Origin: Clostridiaceae bacterium
GTDB taxonomy: Bacteria; Bacillota; Clostridia; Saccharofermentanales; UBA5734
NCBI GenBank assembly: GCA_012729935.1
Contig: JAAYBY010000107.1
Coordinates: 1 to 36,135 of the forward strand
Direction: 5' to 3'
DNA: 36,135 nucleotides
Positions within the stretch are counted from its first letter, which is position 1, and the number at the start of each line of letters is the position of its first letter. A model generated the notes under the pieces. That model saw only the letters and a program-made list of their open reading frames with translations. It ran no database searches and had not been told where the DNA came from. The position numbers and the translations under genes were made by a program. Of this stretch, positions 1,800 to 35,676 are shown one piece after another.

Positions 1800-4700
1800 T
1801 TAATCAGTCAGTTTCATTGATAAAATGCGTGAAATGCCGCGTTCAGGCATCGTTACGCCGTAAAGCCGGTCAGCTGCCTCCATGGTGCCTTTTCGATGCG
1901 TCACCAGGATAAACTGTGATTCATGCGAGTACCGGCGTATGTATTCCGTAAACCGGATGACATTGGCATCATCAAGAGACGCCTCTACTTCATCAAGCAC
2001 ACAGAAAGGTGTCGGCCTGAGTTTAAGGATGGCAAACAGCAAGGCAATCGCAGTGAGGCTTCGCTCGCCGCCTGACAGCAGCAGCAGATTCTGAAGCTTT
2101 TTACCAGGAGGTTGTGCTTTAATCTCGATACCGCAATTCAAGACATCAGACTCATCTTCAAGATTGACTTCAGCTGTTCCGCCTCCGAACAGTTCGGAAA
2201 ACACCTGGCAGAAATTTTCATTGATCAGTCTGAAATGTGCCATGAACTGCTTCTTCATTTCCTGGATCAAACCATCGATCACGCTGGTCAGCTGGTGTCT
2301 GGCCTGTTCGATATCATCTCTTTGCTTCGTTATAAAGGCATAACGGTTCCGGACAGCAATGTGTTCATCAATAGCGCCGATATTAACCGGTCCCAGTTCT
2401 TTTATCTGGTTTTTCAGAAGGTTAACGTGTTTGGTTGTTTCAGAGCGGTTCAGAGACGGCTGTTTCCATTGTTCAGCCTGATCTGCTGTCAATTCATAAA
2501 ACTCCCACAATCTGTTCTTGGCATCATCAATCTGTCCCTCGTAGCGGGATGCTTTTGCTTCAATCCGGCTGATTTCACCTTGTAATGAAGCAATACGGCT
2601 TGTCGCAGATTCCAGCTTCTCGAAAAAGCTGTTCTGCTCCCCTTCCAGACGTGATTTCTCCTCAAATAGCTGTTGAGCCTGATGCGACAGCTCTGTTTCC
2701 TTCTTCTGGAGCTGATCAAGATTCTGTGTATCTTCAACCTGCTCTTTTTGCAGGCGATTGATTTCGTCTTGATACTCCACCTGGTCCTGACGTCTCCTGG
2801 TTAACCGGCCGGTCCGGCTTAACCGGTCCTGTTCAATCCGGCTGATCATTTCCTCTGCTGCCTGAATGGACTCCTCAATTGACTGCAGTGAAACACGCCA
2901 TTCGGTCACAGTCTCACGTAAATCATCGCGTTTGAGACGATCTTCACGACTGCTGCCTTCCTGTTCACTGATTGACTGACGCAGGTTTGCAAGTGTCTGT
3001 TCCATCGATGCGATGTTCTGGAGGATTGATTCCTTGTCCGCTTGTATTTGAGTCAGCTGCTGGTTTAATTGCTGTTGATCTGAGATTAGGATTTCCCGCT
3101 GACTCGCTGTTTTTTTCTGTTCTTCACTGACCGATGCGATTTGTGCTTCCAGACGGATTCGTTCATGAGACCGTTCTAAACGGTTTTGCTCTATCTGGGC
3201 GAGCTTTCCGGCTTGGTCGTTCAGGCTTGTTTCGTCTGTTTTCAGCTGCTGTTCCATTGCCTTTATAGACGCGTTAACGGTTTCAATCGTCACTTTAAGC
3301 GTCTCAATATCGCGTGCTCTGCCCAGCAATCCGCTGCCGCCTTGTTTCTGATAACCACCGGTCATCGAACCACCCGGGGCGATCACATCGCCTTCAAGCG
3401 TAACCAGTCGCAGAGTCTGTCCAGATTGGCGTGAAAGTTTCATTGCCGTGTTCAAATCTTCTGCGACAACAACACGGCCGAGCAGATAAAGCACAACGTT
3501 CTCCAGTTCAGGATCCGCTGTTACCAAATCACTCGCCAGGCCGACAAATCCAGGCAGATTTTGAACAGATGTGATTTGATTTTTTTCTAAGGGTCTGGCT
3601 CTCAATGTATCAAGCGGTAAAAAAGTTGCACGACCTGATCGGGTCTGCTTGAGATCTTCAATCAGACGTGCGGCTGTCTTCTGGTTGTCTGTGACGATGT
3701 TCTGAATAGCAGCACCGAGTGCTGTTTCAATTGCGCGTTCATACCGGTTTTCCGTATATATCAGAGATCCGACAGTCCCCTTGATTCCTGTCCCGAAACC
3801 AGGGTGTTCATCAACCTTTTTGAGGATTGAACGGACAGCCTGCTGATAACCTTCGTAGTTTCTTTCCAGTTTTTCAAGCATTTGCAGCCGGTATGACTGA
3901 TTGCGCAGCTCCTGACGCTCTGTCTCCAGTTTTTTCGCCAGGCTGTTGCATCTGTCCCGTTGTTGATCGATTTCTTCTTTGAGCGCTGAATAAACTTCGT
4001 TTTGCTCTGTCTGCTCGACATCAAGCTGTGTCATCGCTCCTTGTTTTTCTTCCTGCAGGATGCGCAGGCGATCCAAATCACTGATTCGTTCAAGCAACTC
4101 TTTATCGATGGCCTTAATTCGGTTTTGGACCAGGTCGATCTGGTTATCAAGCTGTCCCAGCCGTGACTTTGCGTCAAATGCCTTGTCCAGCAATTCGTCC
4201 AGATGCGTTTTATCCGCTTCAATCTTTTTTTCTGAAGCATCCAGGGTCTGAACCAGAAGTGACATCTCGGCTTCTGCAGCTTTTAATTTTGCATTGTAGA
4301 CTTCACGCTGCTTATGCAGCGTATCGGATTTTGCCTGTCGAGATGCAATTTCCTGATCAAACTCTCCAATGTTGCCGCTTAATTCCAATTCCTCTGCCGA
4401 AGCCAGTTGAATCTGATCATGAAGATGTCGAATCTTTTCACTGTGCAAGGCCAATTTTCGCTGGTAATCATGCGTTTCCTGATTCATGTGTGCCAAGCGC
4501 TGATTAATAGACTGACTTTCTATATCGAGTGCTTCGAGACGCTCGACAGTCTGATGATTTTCTGTTCTGATGTGCGTCAGATGGGCATTGGCCTGCGCCA
4601 AGTCAGATAACACCAGATTTTTCTCGCTATCTGCTTCATCTATCCTCTGCTGATACTGGTCAATCTGATCCAGGATCAGTGCGATTTCTTCGCCTTTCAA

Positions 4701-27202: not shown

Positions 27203-30088
27203 TTAGATGATCGGTTTAAGATCCGCTATAAATTTAAGTGGTTCGTCCAGCGGCTGTGCCTTCAGGCTGTCCTGATGTATCAGTTGAAGAACGATATCCT
27301 CTGTCATCGGTTGATTTTTGAAGACCCGAATCCGTTCAGTCAAATCCTGATTGAAGATGTTAAAGGCAAACAAGTGATCGGACTGGATCATCAGTCCGAG
27401 GCCATCCGGATCTCTTAAGGTCAGTTTTCTGATTTGCCGGAAGACACCTGGTTCAGCATCTGCACGACATAAGTGGCGCAGAGCAGCTTCGTAATGGTCA
27501 CTGCAGGGCTTAACAGGTATCAGACGACTGATTGAACGCTCAGGACCCAGGCCAAACCACGAAACCTGTTGCAGCGATCGCGCCGGATTCAGGCAAAAGC
27601 TGAAACAGGGCGGCGGCAGAATGCCGGTTCTGAGCGGCGTCAGACTGGCAAACAGACGAAGTGCGCCTTGTGCACTTATTTCATATCGCACATTCATCGC
27701 GTAATATGGCTCTACCCCGGCAGCCCCGATATGTGTCGTCATTTCAATGACCGCATTTTTCCCGTCACAGCCATCCTCGACCGATATGACCTGTGTCATC
27801 AAACGGTCAAATCCCGCTTCACTCCAGCGAACCCAGTCCGGCTCATCAACAGGCTCCGGCTGGCGAATCAAGCTGCAGCGCAGTCCGGCCAGCGGCGGAT
27901 GGCGCATCATATCACTGCCGGACAGGGTCAGCCGGCGTGGTGCGAGCCACTCTCGATCTCCTGTCCGCCAGCTTTCCAGGGTTGCATGAATCCTGTTAAA
28001 GACAAACCAGAACCGTGAACCGGATACAATCAGATGATGACGGTCGGACTCCAGCCTGAGCCGGCCACCCTGATGCTGGGTTCGCGGAATCGGTGAATCG
28101 GCAATCTGCAGCATGTGCTCCTGTATGGACAGTTCTTCATCAGGTTCATACCAGAAAAAATATTGGTTTGCGCTGACGGTCCAGCGGATCAGATAATCCG
28201 CGCCGTCTGAGAAATCAATATCCCCGTACCAGAGTTCAATCATCTGGCTGTGTCCTGGTTCAGCGACAACACCGTCCAGCGCACCCGCCAGAACCGGCTG
28301 TCCATTTCGAATTAATGACCAGTTAAATTTGAAACAATCTGCCTTTACCCGGCTCAAGCGATTTCTGATATTGAACGAACCAATGATCGGATTGATCGGT
28401 TCAATGACAATCGGTTCGATCTGTTTTGCCAGCGGCGGCAGGAGTTCCTGCGGTAACGCATGATCGAAAATACACCAAGGCTGCTCGTGTGCGTCTGGCA
28501 AACGGATCCAGCTGATGTCAGCCAATCTGGTAAGATCTTGAGACAATAGCCAGTTGTCGAGATGTCTGCCCAGATGGCTGAAATCAATCCCGTGAATCAA
28601 CCGGCTTGTATCCAGTTTTCGAACCTGGTCCAGCAGACGGTCCGCCAGCAGAGCCATCATTGAATCACTGCGGTCGATGTCGAGGAACAAACCGCAGGAC
28701 CACGCAATAATCGATGGATGATTGCGATCTCTTATGATCAGTCTGTTCAGGCGATCGAACATCCATTTTTCCGGTAGGGATTGTCTTTTTTTTGATAGTC
28801 CGCGAACCCATGACGGACTGGCTTGCAGCGGTGCATCCTCGATCACATAGAACCCGTAGATGTCACATAAATCGAGCATAATGGGATCCGGAGGTACATC
28901 GCAAAACCAGATCGCGTTCAAATGACTTCGCTTATAACGTTTCAGCTGCGTGATCAATTGCGGCAGATCGGCAGTCGGATCGACTTGACTGGCCAGAGAC
29001 CAGCGAATCGCTTTCAGTCGAACCGGTCTCTGATTGACGCTGAGACATTCATCATGCCAGTCCAGTTGCCGGAAGCCAACAGCTTGCTGAAGGCAAATCT
29101 GATCGTGGCCATGCTGGTCATGAACAGAGACAAACAGATCATACAAGACCGGATCCTCATCACTCCAGGGTCTGATGTCCCTGATAAGCAGACTGGCACG
29201 CAGAACGCCTGCTGTCTGGACTGGTGCCGGATAGCGATCCGGTTCAACCGGCTTCATCACGACAGACCAGCCGGCTTCATAAATCGACTGATTCGCATCA
29301 TACAAGGATGCATGCACGGTCGGCTGTTCCATGGCAATCCGGTAGGACAGCAGAACGGCAGAAAGATCGAGCCGCCAAGCCTGCTCCTGGTCAACCCATG
29401 TTGTCCGGACATGAAGATCATGGAGTGTCAAAGTTGGATGTGCTTCAAGATAGACGTCACGAATACAACCAAACCAGGGTTGATCGGGCTGTTGTTCCAG
29501 ATAGCTTCCGACATGGTACGGATAGATGATCAAGAATATCTCATTGTCTCCGTCATGGAGCAGCAGCGTGATATCGAAATCAGCCGGAAGACCACTCCCC
29601 TGCCCGTATCCGGCAAGTTTCCCGTTGACAAAGACATGACAGGCTGATCGAACACCCTGAAGAACAATTCGCTTACGGCAGCGTCCCCATAAAACAGGCA
29701 GCTGACAGGTTTTTCGGTAAACGAAAACCGGTTGTTCATCGCAAATAATCGGCGGATTGACCGGAAAAGGAAACGTATCGTCAGCGGTCAGCTCCGGGCA
29801 GATGCATGATTCTTCCGGGACAGGCCGCTTCTCAAATCCGGAGCGGAAAGAAAGAATATTCTCGGGTAACTGCAATACACTGGGATACATCCGAAAATCC
29901 CAGTCGCCCCGCAAGGACAAAACGTGTGGTGACAGGTATCTCCTGTGATCTGCTAAAGCATGTTTACAGCTGACCGAATCAGGAAATGGAACAAACGACG
30001 CATGCGGTGGAAGCATCAGTCGCTCAAGTATGTCCGGATTGTTCCAGTCAGGACTTGTTCCACGGCCAGGATAAATCGCAACGTTCAT
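27203..30088 (-). CDS. LacZ-like glycoside hydrolase family 2 homologue, apparently catalytically inactive
   Basis: 961 aa, colinear with E. coli LacZ by hand alignment (FPVNPP, VFVNGKLAGYGQGSGLPADFDIT, RDRNHPSIIAWS, WFGLGPE). WSLGNE is WSCGLF (28705-28685) and CEYAHAM is CIFDHAL (28474-28454). Confidence 0.8.
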   Translation of the reverse strand: MNVAIYPGRGTSPDWNNPDILERLMLPPHASFVPFPDSVSCKHALADHRRYLSPHVLSLRGDWDFRMYPSVLQLPENILSFRSGFEKRPVPEESCICPELTADDTFPFPVNPPIICDEQPVFVYRKTCQLPVLWGRCRKRIVLQGVRSACHVFVNGKLAGYGQGSGLPADFDITLLLHDGDNEIFLIIYPYHVGSYLEQQPDQPWFGCIRDVYLEAHPTLTLHDLHVRTTWVDQEQAWRLDLSAVLLSYRIAMEQPTVHASLYDANQSIYEAGWSVVMKPVEPDRYPAPVQTAGVLRASLLIRDIRPWSDEDPVLYDLFVSVHDQHGHDQICLQQAVGFRQLDWHDECLSVNQRPVRLKAIRWSLASQVDPTADLPQLITQLKRYKRSHLNAIWFCDVPPDPIMLDLCDIYGFYVIEDAPLQASPSWVRGLSKKRQSLPEKWMFDRLNRLIIRDRNHPSIIAWSCGLFLDIDRSDSMMALLADRLLDQVRKLDTSRLIHGIDFSHLGRHLDNWLLSQDLTRLADISWIRLPDAHEQPWCIFDHALPQELLPPLAKQIEPIVIEPINPIIGSFNIRNRLSRVKADCFKFNWSLIRNGQPVLAGALDGVVAEPGHSQMIELWYGDIDFSDGADYLIRWTVSANQYFFWYEPDEELSIQEHMLQIADSPIPRTQHQGGRLRLESDRHHLIVSGSRFWFVFNRIHATLESWRTGDREWLAPRRLTLSGSDMMRHPPLAGLRCSLIRQPEPVDEPDWVRWSEAGFDRLMTQVISVEDGCDGKNAVIEMTTHIGAAGVEPYYAMNVRYEISAQGALRLFASLTPLRTGILPPPCFSFCLNPARSLQQVSWFGLGPERSISRLIPVKPCSDHYEAALRHLCRADAEPGVFRQIRKLTLRDPDGLGLMIQSDHLFAFNIFNQDLTERIRVFKNQPMTEDIVLQLIHQDSLKAQPLDEPLKFIADLKPII

Positions 30089-30194
30089 ATTGATGTCCCT
30101 CAGTCAGTTGCTTCAGTCTACCCCTATCCTACCATGAATCGAAGACAGGCATCAATTTAATTCATGGATAAATCGCAACACATTCATCTCCCAT

Positions 30195-30235
30195 AGAAAA
30201 AACCGTAATGCTGAATTCAAATCAAGATTACGGTT
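30195..30235 (-). terminator. Rho-independent terminator, now orphaned next to the tRNA-Pro 3' fragment
   Basis: Minus strand: stem AACCGTAAT / ATTACGGTT (9 bp, 17-nt loop) followed by TTTTTTCT. It lies 6 nt beyond the displaced tRNA-Pro 3' end. Confidence 0.65.
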
Positions 30236-30241
30236 CTTATA

Positions 30242-30289
30242 TGGTCGGAGTGACAAGACTTGAACTTGCGACCTCTTGCACCCCAAGCA
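30242..30289 (-). repeat. Displaced 3' 48 nt of tRNA-Pro (distal att direct repeat)
   Basis: tggtcggagtgacaagacttgaacttgcgacctcttgcaccccaagca is identical, base for base by my reading, to 33195-33242. Confidence 0.9.
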
Positions 30290-30584: not shown

Positions 30585-31931
30585 TCATGGATTACAATTC
30601 CCACAGGGAGAGTAGCCCTGAGCAATAATTTCACTCTTGCTCTGAGTTGTCTCAAGTTTGTTTTTCTCGCTCATTTGCTTTACGCTTTTACAGTCTGGAT
30701 AGTGAAATTTCTTAGTATTTGTATTCAGTATGTATTTTGTCCCTGAAGGACTATTAGTTGTTGATGTTGTCACCTTTGTTGTTTCTTTTATTGTCTCTTT
30801 CGTTTTACTTTCAGTTGGAGTAGTTAGATTGAATCCAGCTACCAATGTATTAGCATTTGCATTTCGTTCGACTGTATAAGTTACGCTCTTTCCATCACTT
30901 ACGAATATGATGTCTCCTTGCATATCTGTTCGCATAACCTTTGCATCTGCATCACGCAGCCTACTCAGTGTGTTATCTGTCGGATGGCCATATGAGTTAT
31001 TATTGCCTACCGAGATTACGGCAAATGTCGGCATTATCTCCCTTAAAAAAGGATACGTTGTTGAAGATTCGCTACCATGATGACCTACCTTTAGAACTGT
31101 GCTATCCAATTTAAAACCTTTATCCAGAATATCCTGTTCCTCTTCGCGTTCAGCATCACCAGCAAATAAAAAAGATATTTCGTCATGTATAACTTTTAAT
31201 ACGATTGAATTGTTGTTCGGATCATCACTTGTCCTAACTGGACCTAAAACCTGAACGCTTGCGCTGCCCAAAGAAAATGAATCGCCAACCTCGGGAACAA
31301 TAATGCCTCGATTCTGTTTATTTAAATACTTCACAAAGCTATTAAAAGCTTTACTGTCATACGATGTCGTAGGCGCAAAGGCATATTCAACGGTGGCATA
31401 ATTCAATGCACCCGCTAATCCACCAACATGATCTTCATGAGGGTGTGTATTTACAATATAGTTGAGGTGATCAACGCCCTGTTTCTTCAAGTAAGAATAA
31501 ATAAGATCTGAATCCTCAGCATTCCCACCGTCGATAAGCATTGATTCGCCATCACAAAGGACTAAACTTGCATCTGCTTGTCCAACATCAATAAAGTGTA
31601 CTTTCAAAATATCTGGAGTAATGATATCAGCCTGAATTGGTGCCCCTGTCTTATGAGTTGTTTGTGATACAGAATTGACCGTTGGCATTGAGGGTGACTC
31701 AATTGATTCCGATGTATTATCCGTTGATAAACTGGTTATTGCCAAAAGAGAAGCTCTACTGTCAGAATTATTTGAGAATATTCCTATAAACACTAAAAAA
31801 ACTATAAAAGAAACAAAGCCCTTGACCCAACCATTCCAATTTGGTTTGTGTCGCCACATAAATAATAAACCAATTGGTGGGAGCATCATTAACATCAAAA
31901 TAATGAACCAGGTCTTATTTTTAAATCTCAC
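30585..31931 (-). CDS. Membrane-anchored ComEC/Rec2-type metallo-beta-lactamase-fold hydrolase with a Thr/Ser-rich linker and a C-terminal Ada-like H/C/C/C zinc module
   Basis: Two N-terminal hydrophobic helices. MBL core FIDVGQADASLV...IDGG...NTHPHEDHVGG...VGHHGS. C-terminus KFHYPDCKSV...GYSPCGNCNP. GTG start with a GGGGA RBS. Confidence 0.75.
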   Translation of the reverse strand: MRFKNKTWFIILMLMMLPPIGLLFMWRHKPNWNGWVKGFVSFIVFLVFIGIFSNNSDSRASLLAITSLSTDNTSESIESPSMPTVNSVSQTTHKTGAPIQADIITPDILKVHFIDVGQADASLVLCDGESMLIDGGNAEDSDLIYSYLKKQGVDHLNYIVNTHPHEDHVGGLAGALNYATVEYAFAPTTSYDSKAFNSFVKYLNKQNRGIIVPEVGDSFSLGSASVQVLGPVRTSDDPNNNSIVLKVIHDEISFLFAGDAEREEEQDILDKGFKLDSTVLKVGHHGSESSTTYPFLREIMPTFAVISVGNNNSYGHPTDNTLSRLRDADAKVMRTDMQGDIIFVSDGKSVTYTVERNANANTLVAGFNLTTPTESKTKETIKETTKVTTSTTNSPSGTKYILNTNTKKFHYPDCKSVKQMSEKNKLETTQSKSEIIAQGYSPCGNCNP

Positions 31932-31969
31932 AATTTATCCCCAAATAAATTAAAATAGAATAATCAACT

Positions 31970-32458
31970 TTAAGGATCACAATTTCCGCAAGGACTAAAT
32001 CCTCTCGCAATTATGTTTTCTCTGGTATCGAACACTTCTTCACGGTTTTCAGGACTTATTTTTGCGGCAGAACCACAACCAGGTTCATGAAATTTCATCG
32101 TATTTGTATTTAAAACGTAATCGAGTTTCGTCGGTTCGCTATTTGTAGTTTCTATTGTTGTTTGCTTCACAGTTGTTTCAATCGAAGTTGGCTTTTGAGT
32201 TGTAGTGGTAGCCTGAGTTGTGGTGGTAGCTTGAGTTGTAGTGGTAGCTTGAGTTGTGGTGGTAGCCTGAGTTGTAGTGGTAGCTTGAGTTGTGGTGGTA
32301 GCTTGAGTTGTGGTGGCAGCCTTCTTAGTTGTTGTAGTTTTAGTGTCGTCAATAGTTGATGTTGTGCCTTGTGTAGATGTATTAGGTATTCCACATGAGG
32401 TAAACACAGCCAAACTAACTATTAACATAAGAAAAACAATATAGAAAATTCTTTTCAT
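31970..32458 (-). CDS. Small putative lipoprotein with a (A/T)TTTTQ x7 repeat linker and the same C-terminal H/C/C/C zinc module
   Basis: Signal peptide MKRIFYIVFLMLIVSLAVFTSC with a lipobox-like FTSC. Thr-rich repeats. C-terminus KFHEPGCGSA...GFSPCGNCDP. AAGGA RBS. Confidence 0.7.
   Translation of the reverse strand: MKRIFYIVFLMLIVSLAVFTSCGIPNTSTQGTTSTIDDTKTTTTKKAATTTQATTTTQATTTTQATTTTQATTTTQATTTTQATTTTQKPTSIETTVKQTTIETTNSEPTKLDYVLNTNTMKFHEPGCGSAAKISPENREEVFDTRENIIARGFSPCGNCDP
32195..32320. repeat. Seven tandem 18-bp in-frame repeats (encode ATTTTQ on the minus strand)
   Basis: Units are (c/t)tgagttgt(a/g)gtgg(t/c)agc. All unit-to-unit differences are synonymous except one (ACC to GCC, Thr to Ala, in the most upstream unit). 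Confidence 0.95.
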
Positions 32459-32679: not shown

Positions 32680-33150
32680 GTGGAATACTTTATTCGCATG
32701 ACAGGGTGCAGACGGTCAGAGGCAATCAACCTCAAGTGGACAGATATAGCAGAACAGATACACATTAGAGAAACAAAGACAGATGATTCTGACCGTTATA
32801 TTCCAATAGTTCAACCTGTTCAATCCATGTTAGACAGGCGCAGACTGACAAAAAATAGCGAATACGTGTTTGCCACTTCCAACGGAACACGCCTTGACGG
32901 TTCCAATCTGCTACGATGGATGAGAGAGAACACCAACTATACCGTCCATGATTTACGCCATACCTACATCACGCGTGGCGCACAGGCAGGGGTCAATCCA
33001 AAGGTTTTACAGACCTTGACAGGGCATAAAAGAATCGAAACACTTCTTAATATTTATACACACGTATCAGACCAAGACAGGACAGACGCTGCACAAAAAA
33101 CTGCTATCTGCATCGCATCTGCAATTCCAAGCGAAAAACCATCACCTTGA
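32680..33150 (+). pseudogene. Tyrosine recombinase (phage-type integrase) remnant: catalytic domain only, N-terminal core-binding domain missing
   Basis: 156 codons from a GTG with an in-frame TGA immediately upstream. The catalytic set is present: TGCRRSE (R), ETKTD (K), HDLRHT (H-x-x-R), GHKRIETLLNIYTHV (H...Y). The usual preceding ~150-200 residues are absent. Confidence 0.75.
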
Positions 33151-33194
33151 GGAAATGTAAAAACCCCGGAACCTTACATTCACAGGGCTTTTCG

Positions 33195-33271
33195 TGGTCG
33201 GAGTGACAAGACTTGAACTTGCGACCTCTTGCACCCCAAGCAAGCACTCTAGCCACCTGAGCTACACCCCG
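33195..33271 (-). tRNA. trnP: tRNA-Pro (anticodon GGG), CCA-3' encoded
   Basis: Hand-folded 77-nt cloverleaf. Acceptor CGGGGTG/CACTCCG, D-arm GCTC-AGGTGGCTA-GAGT, anticodon arm CTTGC-TTGGGGT-GCAAG, T-arm GCAAG-TTCAAGT-CTTGT, then A + CCA. Confidence 0.9.
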
Positions 33272-33283
33272 ACGCGCCTTATC

Positions 33284-33312
33284 ATTTTAGACAGCGGTCC
33301 ATCTTCTGTCAA
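33284..33312 (-). promoter_or_regulatory. tRNA-Pro promoter (-35 TTGACA 33312-33307, 17-nt spacer, -10 TAAAAT 33289-33284)
   Basis: Consensus -35 with exact spacing, 12 nt upstream of the tRNA 5' end. Confidence 0.7.
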
Positions 33313-33322
33313 GCAAAAGGGC

Positions 33323-33366
33323 GAAGAAAAACCGGTATCCGTGCTTTTCTTATAACGGATACCGGT
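33323..33366 (-). terminator. Rho-independent terminator of pnp
   Basis: Minus strand: 11-bp perfect stem ACCGGTATCCG / CGGATACCGGT, 14-nt loop, then TTTTTCTTC. Confidence 0.8.
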
Positions 33367-33378
33367 CTGTTTGCTTAA

Positions 33379-35676
33379 TTAGAAATGACGCTCGTTACGT
33401 CGGCCTGATGAGCCGTTGTCATCGCGTTCGCGTTGTACCGGTCGATTACGTTCAGGAGCATTGCTTCGTTCCTGACGCTCAGGACCGCTGTTTCGGTCAT
33501 GACTGCGGGGATTGCGTCCACCACGTCGACGATCAACAGTAGGACGATCATTCGATCCTTCTGATCGTTGATCCTCGAATCCTTCCGGTTTTTGCTGGGT
33601 ATCGCGAATTGACAGATTAATGCGTCCCTGACTGTCGATCTCCAGCACCTTGACTTTGACCGTATCGCCTTCCTTCACAACGTCTTCAACCCGTTCAACC
33701 CGTCTCCAGGCAAGTTTTGAAATATGGACCAGTCCTTCTTTACCGGGCAGGAATTCGACAAAGGCACCAAAATTCATCAGACGTGTGACAACGCCTTCGA
33801 ATTCCTGGCCAACTGCCGGATCATGCGCGATACCTTCAATCATCTTTAAAGCTTTGTCCGCAGCCGCGCTGTTCGGTGATGCGACAAATACACGGCCATC
33901 ATCTTCAATATCAATCTCAACACCGGTCTCTTCAATGATTCGGTTGATAACTTTACCGCCGGCTCCTATGACTTCGCGGATTTTGTCAACAGGAATCACC
34001 GTTTGAATAATTTTCGGTGCATAAGGTGACAGTTCCTGGCGCGGCTCGCTGATGCACGGTGTGATAACGTCTTCAATGATCTGCAGACGTCCTTTGCGCG
34101 TCATGGCCAGTGCATCTCGGATAATGCCATGCGAAAGGCCGTCCACTTTAATGTCAACCTGAATGGATGTTATTCCTTCAGTTGTGCCGGCTACTTTGAA
34201 ATCCATGTCTCCAAAAAAGTCTTCGATTCCCTGGATATCCATGAAAACCATATAATCGTCTGCTTCCGCATCTTTGACGATGAGGCCAGCAGATATACCG
34301 GCAACCGGACGTTTGATCGGAACACCTGCATCCATCAGAGCCAGCGTACTGGCACAGACAGATCCCTGAGATGTTGATCCATTCGACATTGTGACTTCCG
34401 AGACGCATCGAATAGCATAAGGAAAATCGTCCTCACTGGGCAGGACCGGAACCAGAGAACGTTCTGCCAATGCACCATGACCGATTTCGCGACGGCCAGG
34501 TGAACGCGCGAACTTCGCTTCACCCGTAGAATAGCCGGGCATATTATAGTGATGCATGTATCTTTTTTCATCTTCATTATCCAGGCCATCAAGCTTTTGT
34601 ATTTTAGACAGCGGCCCCAGTGTGCAGGTTGTCAGCACCTGTGTCTGTCCTCTCTGGAACAGGCCGGTCCCGTGAACACGCGGAAGCAGACCAACATCAG
34701 CCGATAAAGGTCTGATTTCATCAAGTCTGCGGCCATCCACACGTCTCTGTTCATTCAACAGATATTCGCGTACCACAAACTTTTCAAGCTGGTCGATTGC
34801 ATCTGCGGTATATGCTTCCCATTCCGGATCGATTGATACCAAATGGGCTTTTGTCTCGTTTAGCAGTTCGGATACCGCTGCATCACGCTCGCTTTTATCA
34901 GCAGCAAGAACCGCATTACGCATCGTTTCATATGCGAAGTCTTTTGTTGCCGCTGTAACAGCTTCCGGCAGTTTATTCGATTCATAGGCAAACTTTTCTT
35001 TGCCGATTTCTGCAACGATTGAATTGATGAATGTGCAGAGTTCCTGTATAACTTTATGTCCTTCGACAATACCTTCAAATACCTTATCATCCGGCACTTC
35101 GTTGGCATTTGCCTCGATCATGCACACTTTCTTGCTGGTTCCGGCCAGAGTGATAATCATCTCACTCGTTTCACGCTGTTTCTCATCCGGATTAATGACG
35201 ATTTCTCCGTCAACCAGTCCTACATGAACGCCGGCAATCGGGCCGTTAAATGGAATGTCCGAGATGCAGGTTGCAATTGATGTGCCGATCATCGCGGCAA
35301 TTTCCGGTGAGCAATCCTGATCAACGGACAACACGAGATTGTTAACCGCAACAGAATTGCGCAGATCTTTTGGGAATAAAGGACGCAGCGGCCGATCGAT
35401 CACACGAGAGGTCAGGATGGCTTTTTCTGTCGGTCGGCCTTCTCTTTTGATGAAGCCGCCGGGAAATTTGCCAACGCTGTACATTTTTTCCTCGTAATCA
35501 ACGCTAAGCGGGAAATAGTCGACGCCCTGACGCGGCTCAGGTGAAGCGGTAATGGTTGACAATATTACGGTCTCACCATACCGGATCAGACACGATCCAT
35601 TCGCGAACTGTGCGATTCGGCCGGTTTCCACGATAAAGGGTCTGCCAGCCAATTCTGTTTGAAAAATTTTCTCCAT
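33379..35676 (-). CDS. pnp: Polyribonucleotide nucleotidyltransferase (PNPase) with an Arg-rich C-terminal extension
   Basis: Two RNase PH domains, KH (VIGAGGKVINRIIEETG) and S1 (GVVTRLMNFGAFVEF). Start ATG 35676 (MEKIFQTEL...) follows GAGGAGGAA. The track start at 35703 lacks an RBS. Confidence 0.97.
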   Translation of the reverse strand: MEKIFQTELAGRPFIVETGRIAQFANGSCLIRYGETVILSTITASPEPRQGVDYFPLSVDYEEKMYSVGKFPGGFIKREGRPTEKAILTSRVIDRPLRPLFPKDLRNSVAVNNLVLSVDQDCSPEIAAMIGTSIATCISDIPFNGPIAGVHVGLVDGEIVINPDEKQRETSEMIITLAGTSKKVCMIEANANEVPDDKVFEGIVEGHKVIQELCTFINSIVAEIGKEKFAYESNKLPEAVTAATKDFAYETMRNAVLAADKSERDAAVSELLNETKAHLVSIDPEWEAYTADAIDQLEKFVVREYLLNEQRRVDGRRLDEIRPLSADVGLLPRVHGTGLFQRGQTQVLTTCTLGPLSKIQKLDGLDNEDEKRYMHHYNMPGYSTGEAKFARSPGRREIGHGALAERSLVPVLPSEDDFPYAIRCVSEVTMSNGSTSQGSVCASTLALMDAGVPIKRPVAGISAGLIVKDAEADDYMVFMDIQGIEDFFGDMDFKVAGTTEGITSIQVDIKVDGLSHGIIRDALAMTRKGRLQIIEDVITPCISEPRQELSPYAPKIIQTVIPVDKIREVIGAGGKVINRIIEETGVEIDIEDDGRVFVASPNSAAADKALKMIEGIAHDPAVGQEFEGVVTRLMNFGAFVEFLPGKEGLVHISKLAWRRVERVEDVVKEGDTVKVKVLEIDSQGRINLSIRDTQQKPEGFEDQRSEGSNDRPTVDRRRGGRNPRSHDRNSGPERQERSNAPERNRPVQRERDDNGSSGRRNERHF

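Follow-up and report, generated by a model that had tools for sequence, protein, structure and literature searches.

Two adjacent genes on a GC-poor islet of a Clostridiaceae contig encode a metallo-beta-lactamase (MBL)-fold protein and a small lipoprotein that end in the same Ada-like module. The stretch analysed (positions 1 to 36,135 of contig JAAYBY010000107.1, assembly GCA_012729935.1) is 36,135 nucleotides long and is called the window hereafter. We propose, with a probability of about 0.55, that the MBL protein is a membrane-tethered metallo-nuclease of ComEC C-terminal-domain type, whose linker-borne His-Cys3 module binds nucleic-acid backbone, that the lipoprotein is independent of it, and that both genes are cargo of a dead element. 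The gene structures, the homology, the predicted fold, the insertion of the islet, and the absence of the pairing elsewhere are shown here, whereas nuclease activity, the binding of DNA and of zinc, and topology are inferred. Both open reading frames (ORFs) and both module positions had been given correctly in an earlier reading of the bare sequence (the original prediction). The two genes and their parts are as follows.

30585 to 31931, minus strand: gene for the MBL-fold protein, a membrane-anchored hydrolase of 448 aa that ends in an ADA_N-like module (ORF, Pfam, PHROG, homologues).
31773 to 31931, minus strand: its N-terminal anchor, residues 1 to 53, with two hydrophobic segments at about 6 to 27 and about 33 to 53 and an ambiguous topology (hydropathy, charge, AlphaFold2 helices).
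30852 to 31619, minus strand: its MBL domain of the ComEC C-terminal type, residues about 105 to 360, with HPHEDH, GDAE, HHGS, and GHP motifs (9ic4, TIGR00361, AlphaFold2).
30738 to 30851, minus strand: its Thr/Ser/Lys-rich disordered linker, residues about 361 to 398, 46 % Thr+Ser (predicted local distance difference test, pLDDT, below 50 at residues 362 to 395).
30588 to 30737, minus strand: its putative ADA_N-like His-Cys3 zinc module, residues 399 to 448, ligands H410, C414, C443, and C446 (Pfam; pLDDT 91 to 98).
31970 to 32458, minus strand: gene for a 162-aa lipoprotein with a lipobox signal peptide, a Thr-repeat stalk, and an ADA_N-like module (ORF, lipobox, large set of small proteins).
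32195 to 32320, minus strand: 18-nt tandem repeat, seven times, encoding stalk units of the (A/T)TTTQ type (TRF period 18, 7 copies, 90 % matches).
31973 to 32122, minus strand: the lipoprotein's putative ADA_N-like His-Cys3 zinc module, residues 113 to 162, ligands H124, C128, C157, and C160 (Pfam, AlphaFold2, Foldseek).

The enzyme domain has the end-to-end homology, the fold, and the metal-ligand motifs of a ComEC C-terminal MBL domain. Its closest match in the PDB is 9ic4, the beta-lactamase-like domain of ComEC, which aligns from end to end (E 4e-42, 36 % identity, query 3-243 against chain 3-258) and is followed by full-length ComEC structures. Foldseek with the predicted model also ranked 9ic4 first (target-normalized TM-score, TMt, 0.86; root-mean-square deviation, rmsd, 2.3; 36 % identity), and hits 2 to 4 were Pce/CbpE (Pce: TMt 0.66, 18 % identity). 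The Pfam family Lactamase_B (PF00753) matched at 5.4e-16 with 59.6 bits, above its gathering threshold of 22.7. The HPHEDH motif occupies residues 163-168, and a comparison of 57 sequences showed conservation of H163, H165, D167, H168 (nearly invariant), D259, H284, H285, and H316. TIGR00361 (ComEC/Rec2) aligned only over profile positions 441-663 of 663, at 128.6 bits, below its cut-off of 190, and the Pfam scan of the protein gave no match to Competence or DUF4131. Thus, the ComEC/Rec2-type MBL domain of the original prediction is borne out by the TIGR00361 positions, the 9ic4 alignment, and the TMt of 0.86, but the protein is not a ComEC, as it is without the competence channel and the OB-fold domain.

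The C-terminal domain of ComEC is extracytoplasmic and has been shown by experiment to be a Mn2+-dependent nuclease (Silale et al. 2021, PMC8579336). The MBL protein, whose whole MBL domain aligns with it, would likewise be a nuclease, albeit as a stand-alone anchored enzyme and with HPHEDH where ComEC has HPDADH. In the AlphaFold model of the entire protein, N-terminal helices are followed by a disordered stretch (53-104), the MBL domain with pLDDT >90, a second disordered stretch (362-395), and a confident C-terminal module. Among 8,000 candidates scored, >7,900 were significant homologues, annotated simply as either 'MBL fold metallo-hydrolase' or 'competence protein ComEC'. The closest relatives are 63-68 % identical, and the same C-terminal module is present in 119 of the 120 best homologues. 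A further relative is the NCBIfam AHM family (NF049846, C. difficile, B3-like), which resembles the MBL protein in being a stand-alone ComEC-like MBL domain from an organism of the Clostridia class and matched residues 77-350 at 1.2e-27, scoring 96.6 bits where the cut-off is 590. The AHM profile, however, spans 304 positions and stops where the MBL domain does, without an ADA_N-like module.

The resemblance of the module to Ada, including His in place of the first Cys, was upheld by sequence profile and by predicted fold. Over their C-terminal 50 residues the two proteins agree at 26 positions (52 %), and BLASTP of the whole proteins aligned the C-termini alone (33/69 identical, E 2e-19). Across each of two alignments, with 12 and with 60 relatives, H-x3-C...C-x2-C-x-P does not vary, and 340 of 344 module copies have His as the first ligand. 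Ada_Zn_binding was the only Pfam match of each bare module (MBL protein, 20.5 bits, E 4.8e-4; lipoprotein, 18.3 bits, E 2.4e-3), the whole-protein scores being 15.4 and 15.9 bits; an NCBIfam scan of the bare modules gave no match. A profile of 12 modules searched against 177,635 PDB sequences retrieved E. coli Ada N-domain entries only (E 0.0065-0.016), and its alignment puts the module His on Ada Cys38 and the three Cys on Cys42, Cys69, and Cys72. The lipoprotein module was modelled with a pLDDT of 92.5, and its top four Foldseek matches in the PDB were all N-Ada (query-normalized TM-score, TMq, 0.61-0.70; probability 0.93-1.00), the next match having a probability of 0.10. The best of them, 1u8b, gave a TMq of 0.70, an rmsd of 2.1 Å over 50 columns, and a probability of 1.00. 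The model has the small beta-sheet, the short helices, and the C-terminal helix with CxxC of the ADA_N fold, and the four-ligand Cx3C...Cx2C arrangement is kept with His as the first ligand. In a viral structure library, the best matches of the module include phage proteins named 'Metal binding domain of Ada'.

The module shares its fold, ligand spacing, and G(F/Y)xPCxxCxP motif with E. coli N-Ada10 (PF02805; 1adn/1u8b), but it differs in context and chemistry. It is C-terminal and probably extracellular, whereas the Ada domain is N-terminal and cytoplasmic, and no helix-turn-helix/AraC or methyltransferase domain follows it. Ada residues R67, K70, and R71 are not kept. His stands where Ada has its methyl acceptor. 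In Ada, methylation of C38 cuts the negative charge of the site and raises the DNA affinity about a hundred-fold, an electrostatic switch covered in a review (PMC4437013). Since a neutral His occupies exactly the place of Cys38, the module would not accept a methyl group from a phosphotriester, and its metal site would be less negative, resembling that of methylated, high-DNA-affinity Ada. The identity of the acceptor differs between sources: Cys69 in the relevant section of a paper on ECOD curation (Proteins 2025, PMC12353581), C38 in PMC4437013 citing He et al. 2005. That section also accepts ADA_N-like members with altered sites.

How common is this module? When a module profile was run exhaustively against 1.84 billion representative proteins (clusters at 50 % identity), at least 9,449 clusters matched at E <= 0.001, and 4,705 passed E <= 1e-10. 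The following counts refer to the best 148 module representatives. As many as 102 are no longer than 260 aa, and of these 41 have a lipobox and 30 more a hydrophobic N-terminus. Many representatives carry 2-6 tandem modules, and Ada_Zn_binding (PF02805) was recognized at E <= 0.001 in 99. The fused domains are Lactamase_B (12), Endonuclea_NS_2 (11), Endonuclease_NS (5), and SNase (2), with PG_binding_1, KTSC, and Dockerin occurring occasionally. The proteins with NucA/EndA-type and staphylococcal-nuclease-type fusions (P0128, P0153, P0122, P0200, P0233, P0246) often have two or three modules in tandem. The best available argument that the module is a nucleic-acid-binding accessory comes from these fusions, because three unrelated secreted nuclease folds bear it. 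The DNA-binding role put forward in the original prediction gains ground for the module through these fusions and loses it for the lipoprotein copy, whose net charge is -3, against +4 for the module of the MBL protein and a family mean of +1.7.

Neither the module nor its fusion to a ComEC-type enzyme is new. The ECOD section (PMC12353581) defines 'ADA_N-like domains', mostly C-terminal on Gram-positive proteins, and it was the sole relevant item that literature searches on Ada_Zn_binding/PF02805 and the sunset domain brought up. Like the proteins studied here, its examples carry a C-terminal Ada-N-like zinc domain on secreted or anchored Gram-positive proteins: Cwp27, M. tuberculosis ArfC, and the signal-peptide ComEC/Rec2-family protein Q187P0 of C. 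difficile, which has the same ComEC(MBL)+ADA_N-like architecture. Unlike our tally, that section does not mention the NucA/EndA-type and SNase-type fusions. Its proposal of alkylated-DNA sensing appears unlikely here, because His occupies the acceptor position. Furthermore, the fusion corresponds to a PHROG family: phrog_14556 (PHROGs v4, function not assigned) matches residues 66-448, module included, at 2e-88 (profile positions 88-451 of 451), although the MBL gene of the window sits in a decayed element and not in a recognisable phage. The novelty claimed for the architecture thus falls. Both protein families are very common and already catalogued, and the proteins of the window are new sequences within them.

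In the mechanism that we favor, the disordered Thr/Ser linker would connect the MBL domain to the ADA_N-like module, and the module, itself non-catalytic, would grip nucleic-acid backbone and keep the substrate near the active site. The lipoprotein would be an ordinary member of a very large family that shows one or more modules on a mucin-like stalk. A bolder version, which we regard as speculative and rather unlikely, holds that the His-Cys3 module is a widespread extracellular binder of nucleic-acid backbone locked 'on' by the Cys38-to-His change, and that the nuclease and the acidic lipoprotein may form a DNA trap or exclusion device. If DNA binding by the module holds true, a substrate-targeting domain would have been named for the very abundant surface nucleases and lipoproteins that gut Clostridia and their phages encode, and the module would be a natural 'constitutively on' variant of the Ada electrostatic switch. 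This would bear on extracellular-DNA turnover, biofilms, transformation, and phage-host conflict. The locus by itself adds little, being one more copy of each family in a dead element, with a pairing that does not recur.

A lipoprotein is recognized by a Lys or Arg at its N-terminus, a hydrophobic core, and a lipobox whose closing Cys falls among residues 1 to ~35 (PROSITE PS51257-type pattern). The 162-aa protein conforms to this pattern with MKR, a hydrophobic core, and the lipobox LIVSLAVFTSC ending at Cys22. The Thr/Ser-rich linker predicted before the module of each protein is present in both, with 50 % Thr in the stalk of the lipoprotein and 46 % Thr+Ser in the MBL protein. The stalk is length-polymorphic: a 1,090-bp metagenome contig (L091) with the same two genes at 99.9 % identity encodes two six-residue units (208-243) in a protein of 132 aa, as against seven units in 162 aa, which could be true variation in the number of tandem repeats or repeat collapse in short-read assembly.

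The location of the MBL protein is less plain. Its anchor was modelled as helices at residues 4-16, 20-26, and 32-51, with a charge of +3 at the N-terminus, +3 in the loop between the two segments, and 0 after the second, and the lipobox pattern had no match in this protein. A lipobox is, by contrast, present in about 38 of 62 orthologous MBL+module proteins, and in most of the others the N-terminus bears one hydrophobic segment, either signal or anchor, from which we infer that the family is extracytoplasmic. The relatives with complex anchors apparently have three helices, one of which falls in a gap when the MBL protein is aligned to them. A location outside the cell is likely for the MBL protein as well, in view of its homology and of the Ser/Thr-rich linker. 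In other words, the surface location proposed earlier for both proteins agrees with the lipoprotein's own lipobox and with the lipoboxes and anchors of the orthologues, while the two-segment topology of the MBL protein stays ambiguous.

The islet itself has a GC content of 36-38 %, compared with ~50 % in its flanks, and is enclosed by perfect 48-bp direct repeats (30242-30289 and 33195-33242) that correspond to the 3' end of tRNA-Pro. Its landmarks are the following.

30242 to 30289, no strand assigned: distal copy of the 48-bp direct repeat (tRNA-Pro 3' end), one islet boundary (perfect match to 33195-33242).
33195 to 33271, minus strand: tRNA-Pro(GGG), the integration target, whose 3' 48 nt (33195-33242) are the proximal direct repeat (ARAGORN; Rfam tRNA, 58.8 bits; repeat).
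32680 to 33150, plus strand: truncated tyrosine integrase of 156 aa, C-terminal catalytic part only, adjoining the tRNA (Pfam, PHROG).

The integrase fragment matched Pfam Phage_integrase at 7.4e-20 (profile positions 32-171 of 172) and the phrog_1 integrase at 1.1e-39 (297-447 of 611). An empty site was found in a public contig (L090; JANHAN010196115.1 of GCA_025563055.1), in which pnp, tRNA-Pro, and a glycoside hydrolase family 2 (GH2) gene adjoin without the islet. This contig is 98-99 % identical on both flanks (its 4067-4403 against window 30058-30289 and 33189-33408) and contains a single copy of the 48-bp repeat, its two alignment blocks overlapping by exactly the repeated tRNA segment. 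A tRNA-targeting integrative element is recognized by direct repeats of the tRNA 3' end, an integrase adjoining that tRNA, and a relative whose site is empty. Thus, from the direct repeats, the truncated integrase, and the empty site, the islet is a 2,953-bp insertion and the remnant of such an element, and the horizontal acquisition assumed in the original prediction is supported by the empty site in so close a relative. Since the integrase is truncated, the element is probably immobile. The islet is most likely a decayed integrative element of prophage type, and the two genes would be its cargo. Against plasmids, the islet DNA gave only weak matches of the MBL gene, in Monoglobus.

Several observations weigh against our explanation. 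Equal positive charge flanks the first hydrophobic segment of the MBL protein, and a plain reading with the N-terminus inside would make the enzyme cytoplasmic. The Ada_Zn_binding scores of both bare modules lie under the PF02805 gathering threshold of 23. The basic residues of the Ada motif GFRPCKRCQP are S, G, and N in the modules, so that the Ada mode of DNA contact need not be conserved. With its charge in the lowest 4-7 % of the family, the lipoprotein module is an odd DNA binder, and a DNA-binding role is weakened for this copy. The ECOD section (PMC12353581) lists the function of ADA_N-like domains as undetermined and suggests alkylated-DNA sensing. On the enzyme side, AHM-1, a related stand-alone MBL protein of C. 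difficile, is catalogued as a beta-lactamase (as cited in PMC13203522), and the second-best structural neighbour of the MBL domain is Pce, a teichoic-acid phosphorylcholine esterase.

The original prediction saw in the two genes a dedicated surface system for extracellular DNA, in which the MBL enzyme degrades DNA that the lipoprotein captures or modulates, or for which the lipoprotein is a decoy. The arrangement invites this idea: the ORFs are co-directional and only 38 nt apart, share the module, are both plausibly surface-exposed, and recur side by side in a second metagenome contig. The 448-aa ORF starts with GTG preceded by GGGGAT and the 162-aa ORF with ATG preceded by GAAGGAAA; both upstream stretches are purine-rich and plausible ribosome-binding sites, one for each gene. 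As to the single promoter that had been proposed, a strict consensus scan detected neither a terminator nor, upstream of the lipoprotein gene, a promoter on the minus strand, which speaks neither for nor against an operon; a candidate was seen by eye.

32558 to 32530, minus strand: candidate sigma-A-type promoter for both genes, TTGATC-17 nt-TATAAA (by eye only; absent from the strict consensus scan).

The two genes are probably co-transcribed here. Yet a conserved two-gene system should recur in independent genomes, and this one does not. Among 80 genome loci with MBL relatives, searched in six frames with a hidden Markov model of the module, 62 had the MBL+module fusion and none of these had a second small module ORF within 6 kb. 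The same held within 8 kb for all 80 IMG/VR loci, each with the fusion, and five further contexts had no small module partner either. The contexts of the closest relatives are mutually unrelated and likewise without a partner. Thus, none of the 142 other MBL+module loci surveyed (62 from genomes, 80 viral) shows the pairing, and its sole other instance, L091, is the same islet and not independent. The modules are not each other's closest relatives: that of the lipoprotein is 57-61 % identical to the modules of two small proteins elsewhere (P0121, P0084) and 48-52 % to that of its neighbour. Small module lipoproteins also stand alone in unrelated contexts, as P0121 does in another mobile-element setting, beside HNH, methyltransferase, and NUDIX genes, and the copy here is acidic. 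A dedicated pair is therefore decidedly unlikely, and the adjacency is best read as two independent cargo genes that share a common domain, not as a conserved two-component system. Among the alternatives, we consider least unlikely, though still well short of probable, that the enzyme is a surface hydrolase other than a DNase, cleaving teichoic-acid phosphodiesters as pneumococcal Pce does or beta-lactams as is claimed for AHM-1, with the module as a domain for retention at the cell envelope through a polyanionic wall polymer. The Pce/CbpE ranks in Foldseek (TMt 0.66), the AHM match (1.2e-27) to a family whose member AHM-1 is a reported C. difficile beta-lactamase (cited in PMC13203522), the canonical HxHxDH motif in place of ComEC's HPDADH, and the co-occurrence of the module with PG_binding_1 and, per the ECOD section (PMC12353581), with CW_binding_2 and LGFP all fit this idea. 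However, ComEC is far closer than Pce in both identity (36 % vs 18 %) and TMt (0.86 vs 0.66), the AHM score of 96.6 bits is far from the cut-off of 590, and the fusions to NucA/EndA-type and SNase-type nucleases point to nucleic acid, as do the relatives of the module on ribosomal proteins (the 'sunset' domain; RplD in PMC12353581).

It is improbable that the two are prophage 'moron' genes, analogous in position to the Sie/Ltp lipoprotein genes that lie beside integrases, which would protect the lysogen through superinfection exclusion or an anti-transformation barrier, foreign DNA being destroyed or blocked as it arrives at the surface. They do adjoin an integrase remnant, the MBL+module fusion is a PHROG family, the MBL domain is also part of a PHROG 'tail protein' family, and 165 IMG/VR contigs encode relatives of the MBL protein. 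At another locus, the small module lipoprotein P0192 lies between a Sie-like match and a serine recombinase, but that match is weak (5.9e-7). Against this, most genomic copies lie at ordinary chromosomal positions without phage genes in the vicinity, and no complete defence system was matched, PADLOC giving only generic, partial MBL-domain matches (LmuA, RTasMBL, Avs1a, PDC-M48B). Least probable is that the genes are decaying cargo of little or no current function, the anchor perhaps being a deletion derivative that mislocalizes the enzyme. The integrase cut down to 156 aa, the mere 2.95 kb of the islet, the gap over one of the three anchor helices of the relatives, and the GTG start codon would suit decay, whereas neither ORF is disrupted and every catalytic and zinc ligand is retained, both genes have plausible ribosome-binding sites, and a second sample has the islet at 99.9 % identity except for the repeat number. 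An anchored nuclease with a nucleic-acid-gripping module, next to an independent lipoprotein, remains the explanation that we prefer.

A recent local duplication of the module was rejected, as the copies are 52 % identical in protein sequence and each is closer to modules elsewhere. A known anti-phage defence system was rejected as well, since no PADLOC match was system-specific and the islet contains no partner genes. Haloferax Hvo_1477 does not serve as a precedent for a ComEC-like surface lipoprotein, because it is of the thermonuclease type and not a ComEC homologue.

Some smaller observations concern the islet and its surroundings. Directly outside the distal direct repeat, at 30198-30238, is a 20-nt inverted repeat with 80 % complementarity and a 1-nt loop. 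It is the counterpart of the hairpin found after tRNA-Pro in the relative with the empty site, and it is probably the native terminator of the tRNA, displaced by the insertion. A Logan contig (L082, SRR29050539; 3716-3851) with an identical PNPase breaks off, within tRNA-Pro, at approximately the edge of the 48-bp repeat, as would be expected if the assembly graph branches there through the repeat or through presence/absence variation. Two more Logan contigs (L083, L084) likewise end shortly after pnp. The exact lipoprotein sequence is absent from a collection of 15 billion proteins that does contain the adjacent MBL protein of the same contig, and the lipoprotein gene was probably missed by the source annotation. 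In a Lachnospiraceae locus (L042; 5803-6999 and 11277-12521), two MBL+module lipoprotein paralogues lie ~4 kb apart, the only such case among the 142 loci.

Other observations concern the wider family. The NCBIfam 'sunset' domain (NF051437) overlaps the module copies of P0126 and P0141, and the lipoprotein itself weakly matches the sunset variant of L17 (6e-5, NCBIfam). By sequence similarity, the sunset domain and the sunset variants of L17, L20, and S2 appear to be related to the ADA_N-like module; the sunset domain, too, is small and C-terminal, and its ribosomal context is cytoplasmic. The placement by ECOD of an ADA_N-like domain on Cutibacterium RplD (PMC12353581) agrees with these ribosomal variants. 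Finally, the MBL domain (residues 110-351) matches the phrog_7043 'tail protein' over profile positions 622-882 of 1077 at 5.5e-58; judging from this match, some phages may carry a nuclease-like MBL domain inside a large tail protein.

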